In this document: positions 3,024 through 20,000 of the stretch, piece by piece
How positions within the stretch are numbered: the first letter of the stretch is position 1
Layout of the letters: each line of letters opens with the position of its first letter
Virus record (IMG/VR): IMGVR_UViG_3300045051_001511
Origin: an uncultured virus (IMG/VR IMGVR_UViG_3300045051_001511)
Lineage: Duplodnaviria > Heunggongvirae > Uroviricota > Caudoviricetes
DNA: 20,000 bases
Reading direction: 5' to 3' (one strand)
Translations under genes and position numbers: made by a program
Notes under the pieces: generated by a model
The model's database searches: none
The model's input: only the letters and a program-made list of their open reading frames with translations
Told to the model about the DNA's origin: nothing

Positions 3024-4568
3024 ATGAAAGATATAGGAATTGCGCTGGCTTCCAAGCGCCGAAGCGATCTCAAGGCCCGGGTGCAGATGTACGACAACGA
3101 CTGGGTCGATCTTCTCCGGAAAGAGATCAAGGCGCAGTTCCATGAGAAAACCTATCCGAATGTCGTGAAGATGCTCGATACCTCGATGAATATCTTCCGG
3201 AGGATCGTCCGGGAGATTTGCACGGTCTACCGCGAACCTGGCGAGCGCAAGATCAAGGACGCTTCGGAAAACGTTCAAAAGGATTTCGAAGAGTTCATCG
3301 GGAAGATGCTCATCGATCAGACAATGCAGGTCGCCCATCGATATGCCAAGGCTGCAACGTGCAGCTTCATCCTCGTGCGCCGCGTCACCAATGAAGAACG
3401 CCTCATCCTACGTGTACTCACACCTGACCAGGTCTATGTCGAGGTCGACGCTGACGACCCGACAAAGATGACCCTCTTCGCCTATGTCGCAGACATCACC
3501 GATTCGAAGGGAAAGAAGAAAAGCATTTGGACCGCCTACACCGACGACGAGCGCTGGTTCTGCGACGACGCAGGGAGGATCCTCACGCAGGACAAGCTCA
3601 TCGAGGCCTTCGGCGCAGAGAGGGCCGCAGAGATCATCGCGGCAGAGTTCAAAAATATCTATGAGCTAATCCCTGCTGTCGCATTTCCGTCCGAGTTCCA
3701 GATCCGCGACTTCTGGAACGACAATTGGAATCGCGATGCCGCCGATGCGAACAAGATGATCGGGCTTCTCACAACCTACGAAAACTACCTTGTGAAGACC
3801 CAGAGCTTTAAGCAGATCGTCCTAACGGTAGACGAGATTTCCGAATCGCTCAAGGACGGGGTCCTCGATCCCCTTTTCCCGATAATCCTCAAAGGCCAAG
3901 GCCAGGCGAATACCCTGGACCTCAACACCGCCTTGGAATCAATCGACCAGGTCATCCGCGGCAAGGTCGCCGGCATTGCCAATAATTACGGCATCAGCCA
4001 AGAGAACTTTACCTTGACGACCCAAGCCGCCTCCGGGTTCTCCCTCAAGATCGCCAATCAATCGCTCCAGGACATACGATCATCGGACATCCCCCTTTGC
4101 AGTTCGATAGAGCGCGCTCTATATCGGATTATCGCTAAGGTCGCCTTCGTCGAAGATCTGGGCACCTTCCCTCTTGACGGCATCATCACCTTCAACCCCG
4201 GCGAAGTCTCTTGGCCCGAAGAGTGGACGACAGAGCAGTCGCGCTGGGTTTTCGAGTTCAGCAACGGAATCAGCTCACCTGTCGACTACGTCATTTCTCG
4301 AGATCCCCAGAAATCGAGAGCGGATGCACTAAAGGAAATCCTTGAAAAGCAGGCTGAGATCAAAAAGCTCAAGCCCACCATGTCCCCGTGGGAAATGATT
4401 GCAGACCAAATGACAAGCGGCGCCGCTGCCATGGGTGCAGGGCCTGCCCTTGCCTCTCTCTCACTGGCGACTGGAAATCAGCCCATATCTACTACGCCTG
4501 TCTCGCCCTCTTCCGCTCCTGGAGGCGAGAAGGTATCGAAGACCATAGGAAGCACAGGTAATGATTGA
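3024..4568 (+). CDS. Portal protein
   Basis: ATG at 3024 follows GGGGGAAGG. 514 aa, immediately after terL. Portal-like motifs NIFRRIV, NIYELIPAVAF and ASGFSLKI. Confidence 0.8.
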   Translation: MKDIGIALASKRRSDLKARVQMYDNDWVDLLRKEIKAQFHEKTYPNVVKMLDTSMNIFRRIVREICTVYREPGERKIKDASENVQKDFEEFIGKMLIDQTMQVAHRYAKAATCSFILVRRVTNEERLILRVLTPDQVYVEVDADDPTKMTLFAYVADITDSKGKKKSIWTAYTDDERWFCDDAGRILTQDKLIEAFGAERAAEIIAAEFKNIYELIPAVAFPSEFQIRDFWNDNWNRDAADANKMIGLLTTYENYLVKTQSFKQIVLTVDEISESLKDGVLDPLFPIILKGQGQANTLDLNTALESIDQVIRGKVAGIANNYGISQENFTLTTQAASGFSLKIANQSLQDIRSSDIPLCSSIERALYRIIAKVAFVEDLGTFPLDGIITFNPGEVSWPEEWTTEQSRWVFEFSNGISSPVDYVISRDPQKSRADALKEILEKQAEIKKLKPTMSPWEMIADQMTSGAAAMGAGPALASLSLATGNQPISTTPVSPSSAPGGEKVSKTIGSTGND

Positions 4569-4797
4569 GCGCCAAGACGTTATCGACTACACGGCGAGCA
4601 AGCAGGAGCTCCAGGTAATCGTCGAAACGCTTTTTGACGAGATGATGACCGAGTTCAACTTGACCGCGTTCCTCGCGGATCCTCGAGGCTATACCCGCGC
4701 GTTTCTTGCGCTAGCTGCTGTCAACGCGATCCGAGCCGTCGCGCCCGAAGCCTATCGACTAGGCCAGGACCTAGCATCGAAGGCGGCAACAACATGA
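4561..4797 (+). CDS. Hypothetical head-module protein
   Basis: 78 aa helical ORF overlapping both neighbours, consistent with translational coupling. Confidence 0.6.
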   Translation: MIERQDVIDYTASKQELQVIVETLFDEMMTEFNLTAFLADPRGYTRAFLALAAVNAIRAVAPEAYRLGQDLASKAATT

Positions 4798-8479: not shown

Positions 8480-9358
8480 ATGAAGCAGGAAGTCCTCAAG
8501 GGCGGAACAGACAAAATCATGCTAGGCCTCAAGGATCATGGGCGGGCGGTCACGCCCTCGTCCTGCAGCGTTCGCATTCTCCAAGGCACGACCGTCTTGG
8601 CTTCAGGCGAGGCACCAGGTGGAGAGTTCATCGTTCCCGCTTCGGTCGTCGAAATTGTCCGAGAGGATCTCGTCGCCGACTGGACATTCACAATTGGCTC
8701 TGCGCCATCACAGCGCCGCATTGAGCTCTTCGATGTAGTTCTATTCAAACTTTTCCCCGTGGTCAGCGATGCGGACCTAATCGCAGAAACCGCGGTCCTG
8801 GCGTCGAATGAATACACCTGTGTCGGCGAGGTCTCGGACCCAACGGCTCTAGGGTTTGTGGATCGCGCGCTTATCGGCTCCCGAGAGGACTGGCTCGGGG
8901 CGATCCTTACCATGCTTTCAGGTGCAGATGCAGGAGGCCAGTATGTCGTTACCGGCTTTTCGCCCGTCACGGGGCAGATTAATTATTCACCGACGACCGA
9001 GGCTTTCGAAGGCGATTCCTTTTCCCTTCGACGTTCGTTCCAAGGCGAAATTGATGCGGCCTGGGCTGACATCTATGACAAGCTCACCCAGGCATGCGCC
9101 GCGGCGCCCGATGGATCCCGGCCAGAATTGATTATGACCCCGGATCGCCTTCGCCGGCCGCACCTCCTCAGGGCCTTGGAGAAGATCTTCCGCGGCTTAG
9201 CCGACGACCCTAGCGGCATCGACTGGGCAAGGGCCGAGAAATACGCTTCGGAGTTCGAGGCTGTATGGAATGGCCTACAGCTTGTTTTCGCCCATGATCA
9301 TGGGACCGAGCCCACCCCCGCGCGGGAGACTTCGGCCCAATGGGGATTCGGTCGATGA
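8480..9358 (+). CDS. Head-tail adaptor-like protein with extra beta domains
   Basis: Neck-module position. Helical C-terminal half (EIDAAWADIYDKL...LRALEKIFR...AEKY..EF) resembles adaptor proteins. Confidence 0.5.
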   Translation: MKQEVLKGGTDKIMLGLKDHGRAVTPSSCSVRILQGTTVLASGEAPGGEFIVPASVVEIVREDLVADWTFTIGSAPSQRRIELFDVVLFKLFPVVSDADLIAETAVLASNEYTCVGEVSDPTALGFVDRALIGSREDWLGAILTMLSGADAGGQYVVTGFSPVTGQINYSPTTEAFEGDSFSLRRSFQGEIDAAWADIYDKLTQACAAAPDGSRPELIMTPDRLRRPHLLRALEKIFRGLADDPSGIDWARAEKYASEFEAVWNGLQLVFAHDHGTEPTPARETSAQWGFGR

Positions 9359-9711
9359 TCGGCACCATCTGGGAGTACATCGTCGAGACGATGACAGGCC
9401 TTGGCTATCGTCTCGATTCTACGGAAGCCGATTCTTTGCAGGATCGGCATTACACCATCGCCCTTCCCTCCGTTCAGAGAAAGACCGATTCCTCGACTTT
9501 CGCGCGCCTCCGGGTCGCGCGTAGCGTCCAGATCCGTCTTCAGTTCCGCGAACGCAAGGATGCGTGCTTTCAGCGCGACATCACCAAGGAGATCGAGCAG
9601 GTGGCAACCACCGTCCGCTCGGTCCTTCTCTTCGAGTCCTCCTCCCTCATTGGAAGGGCGGGAGGCATGGTCGCCGAGATCCAGTTCACGGCGATCGACA
9701 GCATGAATTAA
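9355..9711 (+). CDS. Tail terminator-like protein
   Basis: ATGA overlap. 118 aa alpha/beta protein immediately before the tail tube gene. Confidence 0.45.
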   Translation: MIGTIWEYIVETMTGLGYRLDSTEADSLQDRHYTIALPSVQRKTDSSTFARLRVARSVQIRLQFRERKDACFQRDITKEIEQVATTVRSVLLFESSSLIGRAGGMVAEIQFTAIDSMN

Positions 9712-16400: not shown

Positions 16401-16806
16401 TCTTGGAATTGGGCAATGCATTGACAATTCCCATTTCGGCAGTGTCGGATTTAAGGACGAATACGCCCAAGTCGGGGCCGGCATTGTTGAGGCGGGAGAG
16501 AATACAAACGGCAAATGGATTTTGTTTGGCGACGGTACAGCTATTGCGTGGTTCATTGGCACTTCATTTCTAGCATGCACAATTGCGCTGGCTCCGGTTT
16601 ATGTATCAGCTGGTGGCCATTATTACTATCCTATTGAGTTCGTAGGCAACAACCCAATCGTCGTTCCTATGCCGGGCAATGGCGCAGGTTATGCATGGAT
16701 AGGAAACGTCGTCACGTATGGGGACCATGTAGACATTTATGCCGTCGGTGGTCGGGCGACCGATACAATAGCTCCTGGATATATCGCGATTGGAAGGTGG
16801 AAATGA
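13411..16806 (+). CDS. Large tail tip / receptor-binding protein (hub-like N-terminus, FN3 domain, six-blade propeller, C-terminal fibre domain)
   Basis: FN3 signature DITAPSVP...YKIYRR...YQYAVSAVDHRGNESAKS. Six repeats of the L.DG.V...Y type. C-terminal IVEAGENTNGKWILFGDGT...YIAIGRWK is typical of tail-fibre ends. Confidence 0.8.
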   Translation: MAWLFEFNLGAGFLDYTHSVKAESVLRRLDIHNESLGPTTNQISFLMAPTAAFIASLMAGTSDILVRVTKDGAAYFYGIYQRTLEASELVALEDIQVTVYDPSILLKRKLTAPYKKWASTAVVIVGELLTAGGWTQQSLSSITNAIDSATFEKGGITYFDAIDAILSNFGYVLYFDEAGNAKTFLLFPNAPASSKTYSTGSAGNIIGELKLSRKTRRYAGCKVTFWKHETRANAVVFSDPSGAGQLNKCNIDLTQHANVYPERTGSEDVYCEYSLVENGVSRDLVATNGVTSDILGSGIVVAQFVDYGRKAAVKITGSGTVTRLDVKATSTIIKGSAVVKESIIAGLTDALDEFEASFIQADADADFLVSGRRRYWEFSGTTYSFRTQDTVALGAIATISSTNLDINQLVLITGFQEDDLGFRTVSCEAVSAYALATVSTIRETIPAPNPPAGAPVVVVNDITAPSVPTSVASAQLSNGQLRITFGKSTDTESGMSLYKIYRRENGTTAEACVMDVADTASPTYAVDDSSPVVRKSYQYAVSAVDHRGNESAKSAWTAALAIIDTNAIYRGLRTKAQIAALTNNNVSDYVLCSEAVAIGDATFLEANPIYSVYQWNGTKWSTVGVTSTQIMDSMHDYVAQNPSTGASLSFIQNLATNTALIDRLFANFIQLGGAIYSGGYDAAGNNPLNLPGFFLNSAGGLNAVEALIASIKAIDLQTIVAYKGSWTYGGSFGAPSTSFAGLCPSLLALPDKTVLCFYSGTVLTERIFLPSGVWTEAKPIPGNIPSSISSACRFADGRVLLVYAKPGSMYAYCKIRGTDGSYGPEIKISASTVQSLSVVALSDDTAVLMYQRDSDNYIVEQVRSKDGSWGAPAIVNGAVSGGRGSGTALADGSIVFYYKTYNVAYLAERVRSPAGIWGAETLRLGPGLGDPAATTLPDGRVIVAYTRLSDNFLLFGIRNTNGTFSGGNSLNPSPCGFPSLAVLSDGRVLSLFSQLPNLGIGQCIDNSHFGSVGFKDEYAQVGAGIVEAGENTNGKWILFGDGTAIAWFIGTSFLACTIALAPVYVSAGGHYYYPIEFVGNNPIVVPMPGNGAGYAWIGNVVTYGDHVDIYAVGGRATDTIAPGYIAIGRWK

Positions 16807-17066
16807 TGTGGCTAAAATATAGTCCGTGTCGAGGAAATAAGGATACAATAATTAGCATGTTATCCGCAAATAAACTTGCGATCGATGGAAATGACTACGA
16901 GTTCGAAAGCGATGACGTGCAATGGCCTGATATCGCAAAGGACACCGATTGCGCTATCCTGGAGGCCCATCGCGAATGTGGACAATTATACCTAACCGTA
17001 TTGCGCGTATATTCCGGAACGTCCACAGAATGGGACTCTGGCAAATACCATGAGGTGACAGCATGA
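16803..17066 (+). CDS. Tail-fibre-associated small protein
   Basis: ATGA overlap with the fibre stop. Pattern LKYSP.R....L.IDG.DYEF...GQLYLTVL resembles proteins found after phage fibres. Confidence 0.55.
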   Translation: MMWLKYSPCRGNKDTIISMLSANKLAIDGNDYEFESDDVQWPDIAKDTDCAILEAHRECGQLYLTVLRVYSGTSTEWDSGKYHEVTA

Positions 17067-17287
17067 TGCTGAAAGGCAAGACTCAGGCTTCGGTCGACGC
17101 GGATGCCCGCGTGGCCGCCCTGAAGGCCGAGGAGATGTCCTTGCTGGCTTGGATTGACTCTACGGACTGGATGGCTGCCCGCAAGACAAGAACCGGGAAA
17201 GACATCCCCCAGGAGGTGCAGGACAAGTATCTCGAGGCGACAGCGCGGATATCCGAAATCCGATCCCTCTGCAAGGCAGCGTTATGA
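17063..17287 (+). CDS. Tail fibre assembly-like small protein
   Basis: ATGA overlap. DSTDW..ARK..TGKDIP.EV....ARI motif typical of fibre-assembly C-terminal domains. Confidence 0.55.
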   Translation: MMLKGKTQASVDADARVAALKAEEMSLLAWIDSTDWMAARKTRTGKDIPQEVQDKYLEATARISEIRSLCKAAL

Positions 17288-17712
17288 ATATCAAGATAGA
17301 CACCTTGCCCGAGATCATCGCCGCGGGCATTCTTTGCCTCATGGCCCTAATTATTGTCATCAGAGCGGCAGGAAGGCTTTCAAGGAGTATCCTCGAAGCA
17401 TCCAAACGAGGAACAAAAACGAAGCTCGGTCCCCTCGAGGTCGTGAGCGAGGCCCCAGCCCCTCCTTTGTGTGCGCCAATCGAAGAGCATAGTCTCCTTC
17501 TAGAGGAGCTCAAATCGGCTATGTCGATGCTGGCGCCAGTGGTCAGGGGAATAGACGAAATGCAGCGGGCACAAAGCCAAGCACTCGATGTACTTCTTGG
17601 AATTGCAGAAGGGGAGAAAATAAATGGCCAAGTTAAAAAAGCGCGCCTAGGATTGGCTACCGCAGATGGATATAAGGCCGCGACGGCCGACGTCGCAGGA
17701 GGAAGGGAATGA
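17284..17712 (+). CDS. Single-TM membrane protein, holin or antiholin-like
   Basis: N-terminal TM segment (IIAAGILCLMALIIVI) followed by a coiled region. First gene of the lysis position. Confidence 0.5.
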   Translation: MNIKIDTLPEIIAAGILCLMALIIVIRAAGRLSRSILEASKRGTKTKLGPLEVVSEAPAPPLCAPIEEHSLLLEELKSAMSMLAPVVRGIDEMQRAQSQALDVLLGIAEGEKINGQVKKARLGLATADGYKAATADVAGGRE

Positions 17713-18152
17713 TAGACAAGGTCCAAATTATCGCCAAGGCGACGGGAGAATCCGGATGCTACGCCCTCACCGGCCTAAAGATTGCCGAACGAGGCGGGCA
17801 CGCGCTTCCCATTCTCGAGACTATCGCTGCCGAGATGGCCAAGGGCAATCTAGGGAGCGACTGCTTTCTGAAAGATCCGGATGCTTATTTCAGCGACCTT
17901 TTCGGCGAACCCATGGAGGTAATTAAGGCAGGGCCAGGGCATCCCCTCCCCCTCGATTATAAGCTCCAACCCAACGAGGCAGAGGCCCTTCGCTTCGAAC
18001 GCCCCGGAGAAAAACCCGGCGATGAGCCTCTTGCGCATTTCGTCGAAGGCGCCGGGGACGGAAAGACCGTCTCCTGGGATCCATGGCCAGGGAGCAGAAC
18101 GGTCCGCGATGGCAAGCTCGTTTCCCGCCGCATAATAAGGCGAAAGAATTGA
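17709..18152 (+). CDS. Papain-like Cys-His-Asp peptidase (DUF261-like), putative endolysin
   Basis: SD GGAGG. Motifs Q...GCY, HFV and WDP match the C39-like catalytic order. Sits between two membrane-protein genes. Confidence 0.6.
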   Translation: MIDKVQIIAKATGESGCYALTGLKIAERGGHALPILETIAAEMAKGNLGSDCFLKDPDAYFSDLFGEPMEVIKAGPGHPLPLDYKLQPNEAEALRFERPGEKPGDEPLAHFVEGAGDGKTVSWDPWPGSRTVRDGKLVSRRIIRRKN

Positions 18153-18379
18153 AGAAAAGTCGCATGACGAAATCAAAGGCCTTCTGGGCATCCTATTGGG
18201 GGCTCCTCGGCTGCTACGGGCTCACAGCCTGGCTTGTCCCCGCTGCACTGCCCTCGGTTGGCCCGGGCATCGTTCTGGGCATCGCGGCCGCCGGCGGGCT
18301 CTATCAGGCAGCCAATGTTGCGGACAACCAGGTGAAGGGAGCGCACTATCGCCCCGAGCTCGACAAGGAGGGGCCGTGA
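18149..18379 (+). CDS. Two-TM holin-like protein (alternative start at 18164)
   Basis: TTGA overlap. Basic N-terminus (KSKAFW), two hydrophobic segments and a charged C-terminus. Confidence 0.6.
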   Translation: MKKSRMTKSKAFWASYWGLLGCYGLTAWLVPAALPSVGPGIVLGIAAAGGLYQAANVADNQVKGAHYRPELDKEGP

Positions 18380-18909
18380 GATGCGTATTCGTGGTGGTCT
18401 TGTTCTTCTCGTTCTCGGTGTCGTCCTGGGGGCAGGCGGAGTCCTCCTCGCCGACCGACTTTCCCTTATTAATCTTAGCGCCCCCGTATCAATCGACACC
18501 CTTTCTCCCGCGGCTCGGGCCGCTATCAATAGCGCCGAAGCTGCCGCCGTCAAGCACGGTACCGGCGCCGGAGTCAACGCAGGGCTTACCGCTCTACACA
18601 GAGGAACAGGCGCAGGCGGCGATAAGAGTAGCAGCAGCCGAGGCGGCCCAGGTGGCTGTCGCTGAGGCTGTGCCGGCGGCCGTCGAGATCGCGCTGAAGG
18701 ATTATTCGAGGAGAGAGGGCTTCAAAGTGGGCCTGTGGCGCGTCGCCGCACTGTCCCTAGGGTCTGCGCTCGCTGGGAGCCTCCTCAATGCAAGACCGAC
18801 TCGGGGAGCTGCCTGGGGTGCAGGGATAGGCGCGGCCGCCGGCGGGATTTGGCTTGTCCTGGAGCGCTGGCCGCCAGCCGTGAAAAGGCCATTGGAATCG
18901 CTACCGTAG
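18376..18909 (+). CDS. Secreted spanin-like protein: signal peptide, Pro-rich linker, Ala-rich helix, C-terminal hydrophobic anchor
   Basis: GTG at 18376 overlaps the holin stop and follows AAGGAGG. N-terminus MRCVFVVVLFFSFSVSSWGQ. C-terminal Gly-zipper hydrophobic segments. Confidence 0.55.
   Translation: MRCVFVVVLFFSFSVSSWGQAESSSPTDFPLLILAPPYQSTPFLPRLGPLSIAPKLPPSSTVPAPESTQGLPLYTEEQAQAAIRVAAAEAAQVAVAEAVPAAVEIALKDYSRREGFKVGLWRVAALSLGSALAGSLLNARPTRGAAWGAGIGAAAGGIWLVLERWPPAVKRPLESLP
18381..18665 (+). CDS. Nested out-of-frame membrane protein (i-spanin-like)
   Basis: ATG lies 9 nt after AAGGAGG. N-terminal TM GGLVLLVLGVVLGAGGVLL, then an Ala-rich helix. Fully embedded in 18376-18909. Confidence 0.5.
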   Translation: MRIRGGLVLLVLGVVLGAGGVLLADRLSLINLSAPVSIDTLSPAARAAINSAEAAAVKHGTGAGVNAGLTALHRGTGAGGDKSSSSRGGPGGCR

Positions 18910-18937
18910 GAGTCCCGGGGAGGGCGAAGTCTTGGCG

Positions 18938-18966
18938 GGTCGGGTTGAGACACCGGCCTCTTATTT
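18938..18966 (+). terminator. Possible weak intrinsic terminator of the late operon
   Basis: GGTCGG...CCGGCC stem followed by TCTTATTT, at the convergence with the minus-strand cluster. Confidence 0.25.
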
Positions 18967-19200
18967 ATGCAAGACCTTAATAGTCAGCGTTCCCATCGCA
19001 GGCCCACGCGCGATTCCCAGGCAGAGGTCCGCCAGCTCGCCCGCCTCCATCCCGCGCCATGTCTCGGACCATGTTGGCATGGCGTTTGCTTTATCCATCC
19101 CGACGCCCAGCCCCCACAACCAGTCGGTGAAAGCTATGAAGCCGGCTATATCGATTTCCTCGGCGTGGGACATTTTTGAGGTTTGATAGGAGAATCTCAT
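18961..19200 (-). CDS. Small hypothetical protein
   Basis: Its ATG overlaps the HTH gene stop (ATGA coupling at 19197-19200). 79 aa. Confidence 0.5.
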   Translation of the reverse strand: MRFSYQTSKMSHAEEIDIAGFIAFTDWLWGLGVGMDKANAMPTWSETWRGMEAGELADLCLGIARGPAMGTLTIKVLHK

Positions 19201-19430
19201 GCTGAGATGACCGCGAGCCGGTACTCGTCCAGCGTCATCGTCCCCGTATAGAGCCTCAGGAGTATCCAAGCCGCCCATGGAATGCTTCGAGACCCCGGCT
19301 GATCCTTAGGCGCTGTCCAGCGACGGACTGCGCGGGAATCCACGCCGACCAATTTCCCGGCCTGGGCCCCGGTCATCTCGTGCGCAAGCAGAAAAGCGCG
19401 AAAATCCTCAGGGCTAGGTACCTCATACAT
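19197..19430 (-). CDS. HTH transcriptional repressor, KorC/Aca-like
   Basis: SD GAGG precedes the ATG at 19430. PSPEDFRAFL...MTGAQAGKLVGVDSRAVRRW....IPWAAWILL matches the KorC/Aca1-type HTH pattern. Confidence 0.75.
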   Translation of the reverse strand: MYEVPSPEDFRAFLLAHEMTGAQAGKLVGVDSRAVRRWTAPKDQPGSRSIPWAAWILLRLYTGTMTLDEYRLAVISA

Positions 19431-19635
19431 AGTTCGCCTCAGCAATCGCTTCGATAATCGTTACTTCCTCGGCTATTGGCCGCCCCATCGCATCTTCAGA
19501 GCCGAGTAGTGCGGGGAATTCCAGGTACTGCAAGCCGGCGGCCAAAAGCTTCGCGCGGGCGGCCGCCTTCTTATCCTCGACTTTCGCCGCCGAGATCCTT
19601 AAGCCGTGGTCTGATGATCTGATCACATATTTCAT
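19423..19635 (-). CDS. Small hypothetical protein
   Basis: SD GAGGAAGG upstream. 70 aa, overlapping the start of the HTH gene. Confidence 0.6.
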   Translation of the reverse strand: MKYVIRSSDHGLRISAAKVEDKKAAARAKLLAAGLQYLEFPALLGSEDAMGRPIAEEVTIIEAIAEANYV

Positions 19636-19660
19636 AGCTACCTTCCTCGCTTTTGGGATA

Positions 19661-19678
19661 GGGGCCCTTTCGGGCCCC
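19661..19678 (-). promoter_or_regulatory. GNRA-capped hairpin between genes of the minus-strand cluster
   Basis: Reads GGGGCCC-GAAA-GGGCCCC on the minus strand. No good U-tract. Confidence 0.55.
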
Positions 19679-19685
19679 CGTTGGG

Positions 19686-20000
19686 TTATAGGAACCGGAC
19701 CTCGTGGTCCTTGCGGATCATAACCGCTTCCTGTTTGAGCTCGACCTTGATCCTAGAGGCGAGTCGCTCGACGAGCCCGTCATCCTCGGTGTCGAAGGCA
19801 GCCTCGACGAGGTAGACGCGCTCCTCGATAAGCTCGCCGGACTCGGCACGGTAGCCCCCAGTCGCGACGGTCTCAGTATAGCCGCCGAAAGCCGCGGCGA
19901 ACGCCCCCTTGACTTCGATGCGCAGGGCATCGACGATGGCGGTCGGGGCCACCTGGTTAAAGATTGTGGAAGGGATCACGATCACGTAGAAGTGGTTCAT
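19686..20000 (-). CDS. Putative S-adenosylmethionine lyase (T3 SAMase/DUF3574-like ferredoxin fold)
   Basis: Motif order FYVIV...FGGYT...TGGYR...EE..YLV...LKQEAVMI. The ATG is at the window edge, so the true start may lie further upstream. Confidence 0.55.
   Translation of the reverse strand: MNHFYVIVIPSTIFNQVAPTAIVDALRIEVKGAFAAAFGGYTETVATGGYRAESGELIEERVYLVEAAFDTEDDGLVERLASRIKVELKQEAVMIRKDHEVRFL

Follow-up and report, generated by a model that had tools for sequence, protein, structure and literature searches.

A candidate KorC/Aca-type anti-defence operon with a SAM-lyase-family lead gene at a prophage end in spirochaete-like bacteria

Destroying the methyl donor of the cell, S-adenosylmethionine (SAM), is a known phage trick against restriction, and the SAM lyase of the T3 type is the first early gene of a lytic phage. 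Lyases of the family of Svi3-3 and T3 SAMase form homotrimers, whose active sites lie between the subunits, and they cleave SAM to methylthioadenosine and homoserine lactone. On plasmids, the kilC operon of the IncP and IncU groups (klcA-klcB-korC) carries a counter-restriction gene in first position and the gene of its repressor, KorC, further down, and the KorC operators of RK2 are 17-bp palindromes. The klcA gene of RP4 is induced about 120- to 220-fold on entry and transfer and is held down by KorA and KorC (PMC7314908, in its available part). In the aca1 and aca2 operons, a DNA motif in the promoter is followed by a hairpin in the 5' untranslated region (UTR), and Aca1 and Aca2 also bind RNA (PMC13551039, in its available part). 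In this article, we will examine four short genes at the end of a stretch of 20,000 nucleotides from an uncultured tailed virus (IMG/VR record IMGVR_UViG_3300045051_001511), a stretch that we will call the window. Judging from comparisons of sequences and predicted structures, these genes are probably an anti-defence operon that represses itself through a KorC/Aca-type regulator and lies at one end of a temperate phage whose hosts are spirochaete-like. An operon of this kind was the proposal of the original prediction, made from the sequence alone, and the computational checks that bear on it, namely the relatives of the helix-turn-helix (HTH) protein, their plasmid contexts, the promoter-operator of related loci and the link to SAM lyases, came out in its favor.

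The four short minus-strand genes that had been described are borne out, coordinates and lengths included, by the listing of open reading frames (ORFs) and by the sequence itself:

Gene A, 19686-20000, minus strand: 104 amino acids (aa), first in the operon; the window ends with the three bases of its ATG
Gene B, 19423-19635, minus strand: 70 aa, a truncated paralogue of A
Gene C, 19197-19430, minus strand: 77 aa from a MYEVP start, a KorC/Aca-type HTH repressor; its start overlaps the end of B
Gene D, 18961-19200, minus strand: 79 aa, an orphan protein in the fourth slot, whose content varies; its start codon overlaps the stop codon of C

The overlap is 8 nt between B and C (ATGTATGA) and 4 nt between C and D (ATGA), while A is separated from B by a gap of 50 nt that contains a GC-rich hairpin. 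The start of A is fixed and the gene complete, because nearly all of the 40 homologues found are exactly 104 aa long. Longer forms are also open for C (82 aa, with a TTG start, from 19445) and for D (105 aa, from 19278), and both were discarded because relatives keep the two overlaps as well as the MY... start. We gathered 29 related loci, designated here by L numbers: 7 are on viral contigs, 7 in species genomes and 15 in metagenomes. A, B and C stand together and in the same order in all 14 loci of the first round (viral contigs and species genomes), and the 8-nt overlap of B and C is retained wherever both genes are seen. This recurrence sets A, B and C apart from chance ORFs. Among the 15 metagenome loci, B is present in 11 and C in 9, and the misses correspond either to contig ends (L017, L018, L022 and L025) or to distant A-like genes, 34% identical and in another context (L029 and L030).

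The idea that the first gene is SAM-lyase-like is upheld by its fold, by its profile and by its signature residues. The AF2 model of A, built with 29 sequences (pLDDT 94.7), has the beta-alpha-beta-beta-alpha-beta order of a PII-like ferredoxin fold, and among solved structures Foldseek ranks the phage SAM lyase Svi3-3 first (6zm9; E 1.1e-5, TMq 0.74), ahead of CutA, PII and a SAM-AMP lyase. The VIA aligner also places 6zm9 in its top row (Z 10.8, root-mean-square deviation 2.9, 102 of 104 residues), and in the model the match to a solved lyase extends over the whole length of A. An exhaustive profile search then returned 999 representative clusters at E<=0.001, some of them fused to longer proteins, and 101 full-length members (about 100-130 aa) out of 150 listed were aligned with A of the window. 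In this alignment of 102 sequences, Q90 is invariant and P10, G39, G40, T42, G48, E60, A81 and E91 are at least 90% conserved; the profile made from it finds Svi3-3 (6zm9_A) in the PDB at E 1.1e-4, and 5 of its 8 matches at E<=10 are SAM or SAM-AMP lyases. G48-x-Y50 of A is aligned on G56-V57-Y58 of 6zm9_A, E60 on E69, and K-Q90-E91 on K-Q104-E105. According to the available part of PMC7877911, strict conservation among active SAMases is limited to Gly56, Glu69 and Gln104, and Tyr58 and Glu105 complete the active site; the five corresponding residues of A (G48, Y50, E60, Q90 and E91) are all invariant in its close family, so that the SAM-lyase signature is present. We conclude, from sequence and model, that A belongs to the SAM-lyase superfamily, that its signature is intact and that its putative substrate is SAM or a SAM conjugate. 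More widely, the A superfamily consists of small proteins of about 100-130 aa in which the SAM-lyase positions are occupied by Gly, Glu and Gln-Glu. With the phage SAM lyases (the T3 gene 0.3 SAMase and Svi3-3) and the SAM-AMP lyases, A has in common its fold, its signature residues and its origin in phages. It differs from these lyases by its size (104 vs 125-152 aa), by a much shorter T-loop and by an identity of only 14-16%, and, unlike the T3 type, it stands in a self-repressed operon of a temperate phage, together with a truncated paralogue.

The second member of the operon also connects to the SAM lyases, since B is homologous to A: hhalign of the two families gives a probability of 94.7% and E 6.3e-8, with residues 7-69 of A on 3-65 of B. 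Its AF2 model (pLDDT 92.2) is limited to a strand-helix-strand-strand order (strands at 2-6, 36-47 and 53-64, helix at 16-32). Helix 2, the Gln-Glu of the B-loop and strand 4 are missing, as are the equivalents of the Gly and of the Tyr, and B retains the Glu equivalent to E60 of A (the invariant E56 of B). Because of these absences, B as it is modeled cannot be a lyase by itself. It has no match in Pfam, NCBIfam or PADLOC and a weak one only in PHROG (phrog_21720, E 0.035); Foldseek of its model gives nothing at E<=0.001, 6zm9 being third at E 0.28, and its best score in Atlas is 0.77. The conserved coupling of B to C and its descent from A suggest that it is likely a partner or a modulator.

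For the regulator of the operon, the original prediction had called for a comparison of the HTH protein with the Aca families and with KorC. A profile built from 17 C proteins was searched against the PDB, and its 7 matches at E<=0.001 (7/7), which are the only significant solved relatives, are the Aca-type HTH domain of AcrIF24 (E 4.7e-8), Aca3 (2e-7) and Aca1 (2.8e-5), aligned over residues 5-58 of 77. The HTH of C is thus homologous to that of named Aca families, and the tools used assigned it to no curated one. It matches phrog_8351 at E 1e-12 and, weakly, the Xer activation factor of NCBIfam (E 0.012). On the plasmid side, tblastn with C retrieved 361 records, of which 244 are conjugative. 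The KorC-type homologues are 38-40% identical to C (E 1e-6 to 4e-6), and one match is annotated KorC (38%, E 1e-6). The survey of neighboring genes, for which 2 of the 361 records were opened, gave antirestriction-KorC-kleE in one context and antirestriction-klcB-regulator-kleE in the other, on IncP-like backbones, the C homologues being annotated as 'KorC repressor protein' and 'transcriptional regulator'; C is therefore similar to a KorC that is encoded after an antirestriction gene. In cultured phages, C is limited to three Yersinia phage records (39.7% identity, in another context), and C alone as a query for viral loci gave no confirmed locus. The phage operon also resembles kilC in its order, the proposed counter-restriction gene coming ahead of the repressor. 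It differs from it by a lead gene of the SAM-lyase family, which is not of the ArdB/KlcA type, and by its setting in a temperate phage of spirochaete-like hosts rather than in a proteobacterial plasmid, and neither B nor D has a counterpart in the kilC regulon.

The operator through which C would act can be read in the related loci. A strong promoter with an inverted-repeat operator had been anticipated upstream, and this stood for the relatives, where the promoter is near-consensus, while in the window itself it is not visible because the window ends at the ATG of A. In 24 of the 29 related loci, A is preceded by a TTGACA box, a spacer of 17-18 nt and a TATACT or TATAAT box, and a 7+3+7 palindrome, TAGGxxx-N3-xxxCCTA, occupies the spacer and runs into the beginning of the -10 box. 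This 17-bp palindrome in the promoter spacer, overlapping the -10 box, is also the layout of the KorC operators. The five loci that lack it are L010 and L028 (contig ends), L022 (a different promoter, with another small palindrome) and the distant L029 and L030. No promoter-like site was found inside 18700-20000 and the exact operator is not in the window, as expected if its copy lies beyond base 20000; a search with the exact last 33 bases of the window gave no match in the viral contigs, and the nearest related record is a 6.5-kb fragment that does not include this region. Among the 144 cells of 16 distinct operators, 91.7% are paired and 14 are altered on both sides, and six half-site variants stay symmetric; the three variable positions show no unpaired cell, and none of 500 shuffles (0/500) reached the score. 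The half-site follows the recognition helix of C in all 21 loci in which both parts can be seen (21/21):

Half-site GGGCC: helix R-A-x-R-R, 10 loci
Half-site GGCCC: helix R-T-x-R-K, 6 loci
Half-site GGCAC: helix R-T-V-R-S, 3 loci
Half-site GGACA: helix RTLRR, 1 locus
Half-site GGGCA: helix RTFRR, 1 locus

In the window, the recognition helix of C is GVDSRAVRRWTA, identical to that of L015. The same code appears far from the phages, in a conjugative plasmid of E. coli (L038), where TAGGACA-N3-TGTCCTA occupies the same promoter position, both before the antirestriction gene (1234-1250) and before kleE (3229-3245), that is two matches for 0.07 expected. The KorC helix of this plasmid is SRTVRRW and the helix of L005 is SRTLRRW, with an identical half-site despite very distant hosts, and this agrees, as an independent case, with an operator that would be read by C. 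Since the exact operator occurs only once per record in the five records searched (5/5), C would be a local rather than a global regulator, with a single operator, unlike the kilC regulon.

Between this promoter and A, the relatives have a leader of 55-80 nt (for instance L004:1522-1594, L015:5930-6003 and L005:5948-6003). In the 19 distinct leaders, a first hairpin is optional, the second, which has one bulged base, is conserved, and a further one of 4 bp (CUCC/GGAG) covers the ribosome site; RNAalifold gives 9 pairs, 3 of them with compensatory changes, and the folding z-scores are modest (-0.8 to -2.6). At gathering scores, Rfam yields only tRNAs in 11 loci, with no family matching the leader or the surroundings of the operon, and at E<=10 it matches nothing in L004 1480-1620. 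A promoter inverted repeat followed by a structured 5' UTR recalls the acr-aca operons (as presented in the available part of PMC13551039), and by analogy with Aca1 and Aca2 the leader could be a second binding site for C, or else a sensor. A second RNA element is found after A, and the ribosome site of B follows it:

GC-rich RNA hairpin, 19660..19679, minus strand: 8 bp with a GAAA loop, located 6 nt downstream of the A stop and preceding the ribosome site of B (from folding)
Shine-Dalgarno-like GAGGAAGG, 19641..19648, minus strand: 6 nt 5' of the ATG of B (read in the sequence)

The post-A hairpin is present in all 20 distinct A-B spacers (19 loci and the window; 20/20), with loops of the GNRA or UUCG type and mostly without a U-tract, and it probably acts as a partial terminator or attenuator, or as a stabilizer of the mRNA 3' end. 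In one locus (L026:3313-3604), about 240 extra bases with a possible small ORF lie between this hairpin and B. The notion that the second leader hairpin (P2) or the A-B hairpin mimics the operator was dropped, as visual inspection showed neither of them co-varying with the operator type.

After the core of A, B and C, the operon ends on genes that vary. Among 5.8 billion proteins, the sole match of D is its own record, and weak relatives of D are found in the same slot of L004 (85 aa) and L008 (114 aa); both overlap C by ATGA, as D does, and 10 columns are invariant. D has no lead from families, from PADLOC or from Atlas (best score 0.84; pLDDT of the Atlas model 0.46). Elsewhere, the fourth slot holds zinc-ribbon-like proteins (68 and 53 aa), membrane proteins (219 and 117 aa), a 142-aa protein or C-terminal domains fused to C, or is empty, and the pattern of this varying content makes it a cargo position. 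The fusions, in which C carries an extra C-terminal domain, occur in L002:836-1417 (193 aa) and L007:6564-6953 (129 aa) and recall the Acr-Aca fusions; these extensions do not resemble D (0.4% probability in hhalign with that of L007). In PADLOC, none of A, B, C and D has a match at E<=0.1 (0/4), and the cargo proteins of the relatives have three chance-level matches only. The proposal that the two ORFs then without assignment are candidates for new anti-defence proteins thus needs to be divided, since 19423-19635 is a truncated lyase paralogue within the conserved core and only 18961-19200 sits in the variable cargo slot. The kinship with acr-aca operons (Aca1, Aca3 and the AcrIF24 fusion) lies in the homologous HTH of C; unlike in those operons, no known Acr was matched, the conserved upstream genes are a predicted enzyme of the SAM-lyase family and its half-copy, and the variable gene is downstream of the regulator and not upstream. 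The general libraries used, none of them dedicated to Acr proteins, gave no known Acr for A, B or D, and no verified anti-CRISPR was found in the operon. What the comparisons support directly is the anatomy of the genes, the family links of A and C, the operator of the relatives together with its co-variation with C, and the paralogy of B, and not an anti-CRISPR activity of the operon.

If the favored reading of a self-repressed anti-defence operon is correct, its functioning could be as follows. Upon entry of the phage DNA, the host RNA polymerase would fire the near-consensus promoter, which is seen in the relatives and would lie just beyond base 20000. A would be made first and in the largest amount, as a trimeric SAM lyase with a PII fold that would cleave SAM or a SAM conjugate, and the depletion of SAM would starve SAM-dependent defences, for example type I restriction or BREX. 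The post-A hairpin would let only part of the transcripts through into the translationally coupled B, C and D. C, as a dimer, would then bind the palindrome that overlaps the -10 box and shut the operon, and this repression would keep the lyase, toxic if over-made, at a low level in the lysogen. B would be a catalytically incomplete half-copy, likely a partner or modulator, and D the present occupant of a slot whose cargo differs between phages. The same logic of a burst followed by repression is documented for klcA of RP4 (PMC7314908, in its available part). In a more elaborate version, which we regard as rather unlikely in its entirety, the dead half-copy B, produced together with the repressor, would associate with the lyase trimer or with the repressor and gate activity or repression according to SAM or its products; the conserved leader, whose three hairpins hide the ribosome site, would serve as a sensor or as an additional site for C; and the fourth slot would be a source of new anti-defence proteins in spirochaete phages. 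If this were true, the operon would deplete SAM in a self-limiting way, under two additional layers of control for which no counterpart is described.

The setting of the operon is that of a prophage end. The window is a tailed-phage late region, with PHROG matches for the small and large terminase, the portal, the major head protein, tail proteins, the tape measure and a 1131-aa tail fibre. After the tail genes come small plus-strand ORFs with membrane-protein character, to which the minus-strand operon is convergent. The original prediction had placed the operon directly after lysis, and this is plausible from synteny, since relatives have Amidase_2 or DUF261 and small membrane proteins at that position, while none of the seven small plus-strand ORFs of the window (16695-18909) matches a lysis family. 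The relative, in L005, of a 147-aa protein of the window matches DUF261, a Borrelia family, and a 98-aa ORF of the window (within 16695-18909, plus strand) ends in ...YRPELDK, a motif common to small membrane proteins of L002 and L005. In the related loci, the block is always at the prophage end, between late or lysis genes and either an integrase or host DNA. It is convergent with lysis and tail genes in L002, L005, L009 and L011-L014, a tyrosine integrase adjoins it in 6 of the 12 loci scanned, and host genes adjoin it directly in L005, L006 and L009. The layout of L004 is different, as the operon there comes after an HTH_3 and Peptidase_M78 pair (ImmR/ImmA-like; L004:194-1152) and has a host-like PAS histidine kinase on its other side. 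A gene for a MoxR-type AAA_3 ATPase abuts two of the operon-terminal prophages (L005:4657-5601 and L006:602-1594), and this common neighbor suggests a shared integration site. In L007, the integrase is beside a tRNA gene (4601-4672) and two further tRNA genes are within the prophage (9276-9347 and 9498-9571). As for the hosts, five of the 7 species-genome loci are in metagenome-assembled genomes labeled as spirochaete or Treponemataceae, one is in an 'uncultured bacterium' and one in Methanolinea. The last of these (L008, labeled Methanolinea sp., in an archaeon bin) shares its bacterial-type promoter, its operon and its integrase with the spirochaete loci, and its archaeal label is probably a binning error. 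The stretch itself is contained in four DNA runs from rhizosphere metagenomes, and no RNA run is listed with it.

Several observations weigh against an anti-defence operon led by a SAM lyase. In the VIA comparison, the rows that follow 6zm9 are generic or designed ferredoxin folds with Z up to 9.8 over at most 84 residues, which leaves a small margin of about 1 Z. A of the window scores below the Pfam cut-offs both of DUF3574 (PF12098; 18.3 bits vs 25), a family of unknown function, and of S-AdoMet_lyase (PF23780; 13.8 vs 28), and the narrow A-family profile found no lyase in the PDB, with TFIIS at chance level only; it is because of these results that the search with A was widened. Matches to DUF3574 are more numerous than matches to the lyase family among both the close relatives (27 vs 21 of 29) and the distant ones (53 vs 16 of 102), the DUF3574 counts being taken at looser thresholds than the curated cut-off and the 21 lyase matches at E<=1 (best 7.1e-5); from its matches, the DUF3574 family is related to that of A. 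T3 SAMase and Orf1 have two consecutive acidic residues, E68 of T3 being equivalent to E69 of Svi3-3 (PMC7877911, in its available part), and hhalign places the invariant pair E59-E60 of A on E67-E68 of T3 SAMase at a probability of 4% only. The T-loop of A has about 5 residues in the model vs 10-12 in solved lyases (PMC12255297, in its available part). The collection of cultured phages holds no relative of A, and A-B-C is a fixed core, unlike the shuffled small genes of many acr loci. A prophage-end site also fits a lysogenic-conversion or defence cargo. On the side of the regulation, the promoter, the operator and the leader of this phage lie outside the window and are deduced from relatives, the match between operator and helix could come in part from shared descent, and the korC plasmid stretch of Tardibacter (L037) has no exact TAGG-N9-CCTA site.

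These points feed alternative explanations to various degrees. The excess of DUF3574 matches, together with how common the ferredoxin/PII fold is, would suit an A that is a PII-like, DUF3574-kind protein, binding small molecules or regulating without lyase activity, in an operon that serves phage physiology, for example with C as a directionality factor for integration and excision, for which one could invoke the integrase as upstream neighbor in half of the loci scanned and the weak Xer activation factor match. We find this very unlikely, as the G/Y/E/Q/E lyase signature is conserved throughout the superfamily in alignment with Svi3-3, no integrase is adjacent in L005, L006 and L009, and the operator of C is found in its own promoter, once per record, and not at an attachment site. 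The Gly, Glu and Gln-Glu conserved in the A superfamily suggest that many small phage proteins, and DUF3574 itself, may be SAM-lyase relatives, and 53 of the 102 A-superfamily sequences also match DUF3574. A closer alternative keeps the anti-defence role and changes the target of A, which would be a lyase of SAM conjugates, such as SAM-AMP, the signal of type III CRISPR, in which case A would be an anti-CRISPR protein that destroys a second messenger, or else would act mainly by binding the host SAM synthetase and not by cleaving SAM. SAM-AMP lyases do resemble SAM lyases in their fold and in the Glu/Gln pair, and PMC12255297, in its available part, describes one that a phage encodes; their chains are among the matches of A (9gad and 9gab, Foldseek E 3e-3 to 7e-3; profile E 0.7), the closest solved relatives of C are anti-CRISPR-associated, and T3 SAMase is reported to inhibit MetK (PMC8406200, in its available part). 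Svi3-3 is however clearly the better match for A (TMq 0.74 vs 0.50, profile E 1e-4 vs 0.7), and the short T-loop would, from the model and what is available of PMC12255297, leave no room for the AMP-stacking residues of the SAM-AMP enzyme, so that we hold this alternative to be decidedly unlikely.

The operon could also serve the lysogen rather than the incoming phage, as a moron in which A is a SAM-depleting toxin, B its inhibitor and C the regulator, acting by abortive infection or addiction against superinfecting phages or prophage loss. Its place at the very end of the prophage, beside an integrase or host DNA, is a typical cargo site, SAM lyase is toxic at higher expression (PMC7877911, in its available part), B and C are translationally coupled, and B keeps the Glu without the Gln loop, as a poison or decoy subunit might. 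Against this, the four genes are without a PADLOC match, Aca and KorC, the relatives of the regulator, control counter-defence genes, the post-A hairpin should make B scarcer than A, which is the opposite of what an antitoxin requires, and a near-consensus self-repressed promoter suits a burst on entry; this explanation therefore appears unlikely. The reading that we retain is that of a KorC/Aca-type self-repressed anti-defence operon.

All the parts of this operon are of known kinds. Their combination, in which prophages of spirochaete-like hosts associate a lead gene of the SAM-lyase family with its half-copy and with a KorC/Aca repressor whose operator code can be read, was not found in the literature searched, and the full texts searched gave no paper on a SAM lyase under an Aca-type regulator. 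The operon, as we read it, would unite the phage SAM lyases, the control of plasmid antirestriction by KorC and the control of anti-CRISPRs by Aca proteins, and it would do so in a poorly studied group of hosts. The pairs of operator and recognition helix constitute a natural table of specificity for this family of HTH proteins, and, with the regulator as a constant marker of the slot, cargo genes such as D can be collected by association. B, the leader and the cargo slot would be the parts likeliest to yield novelty.

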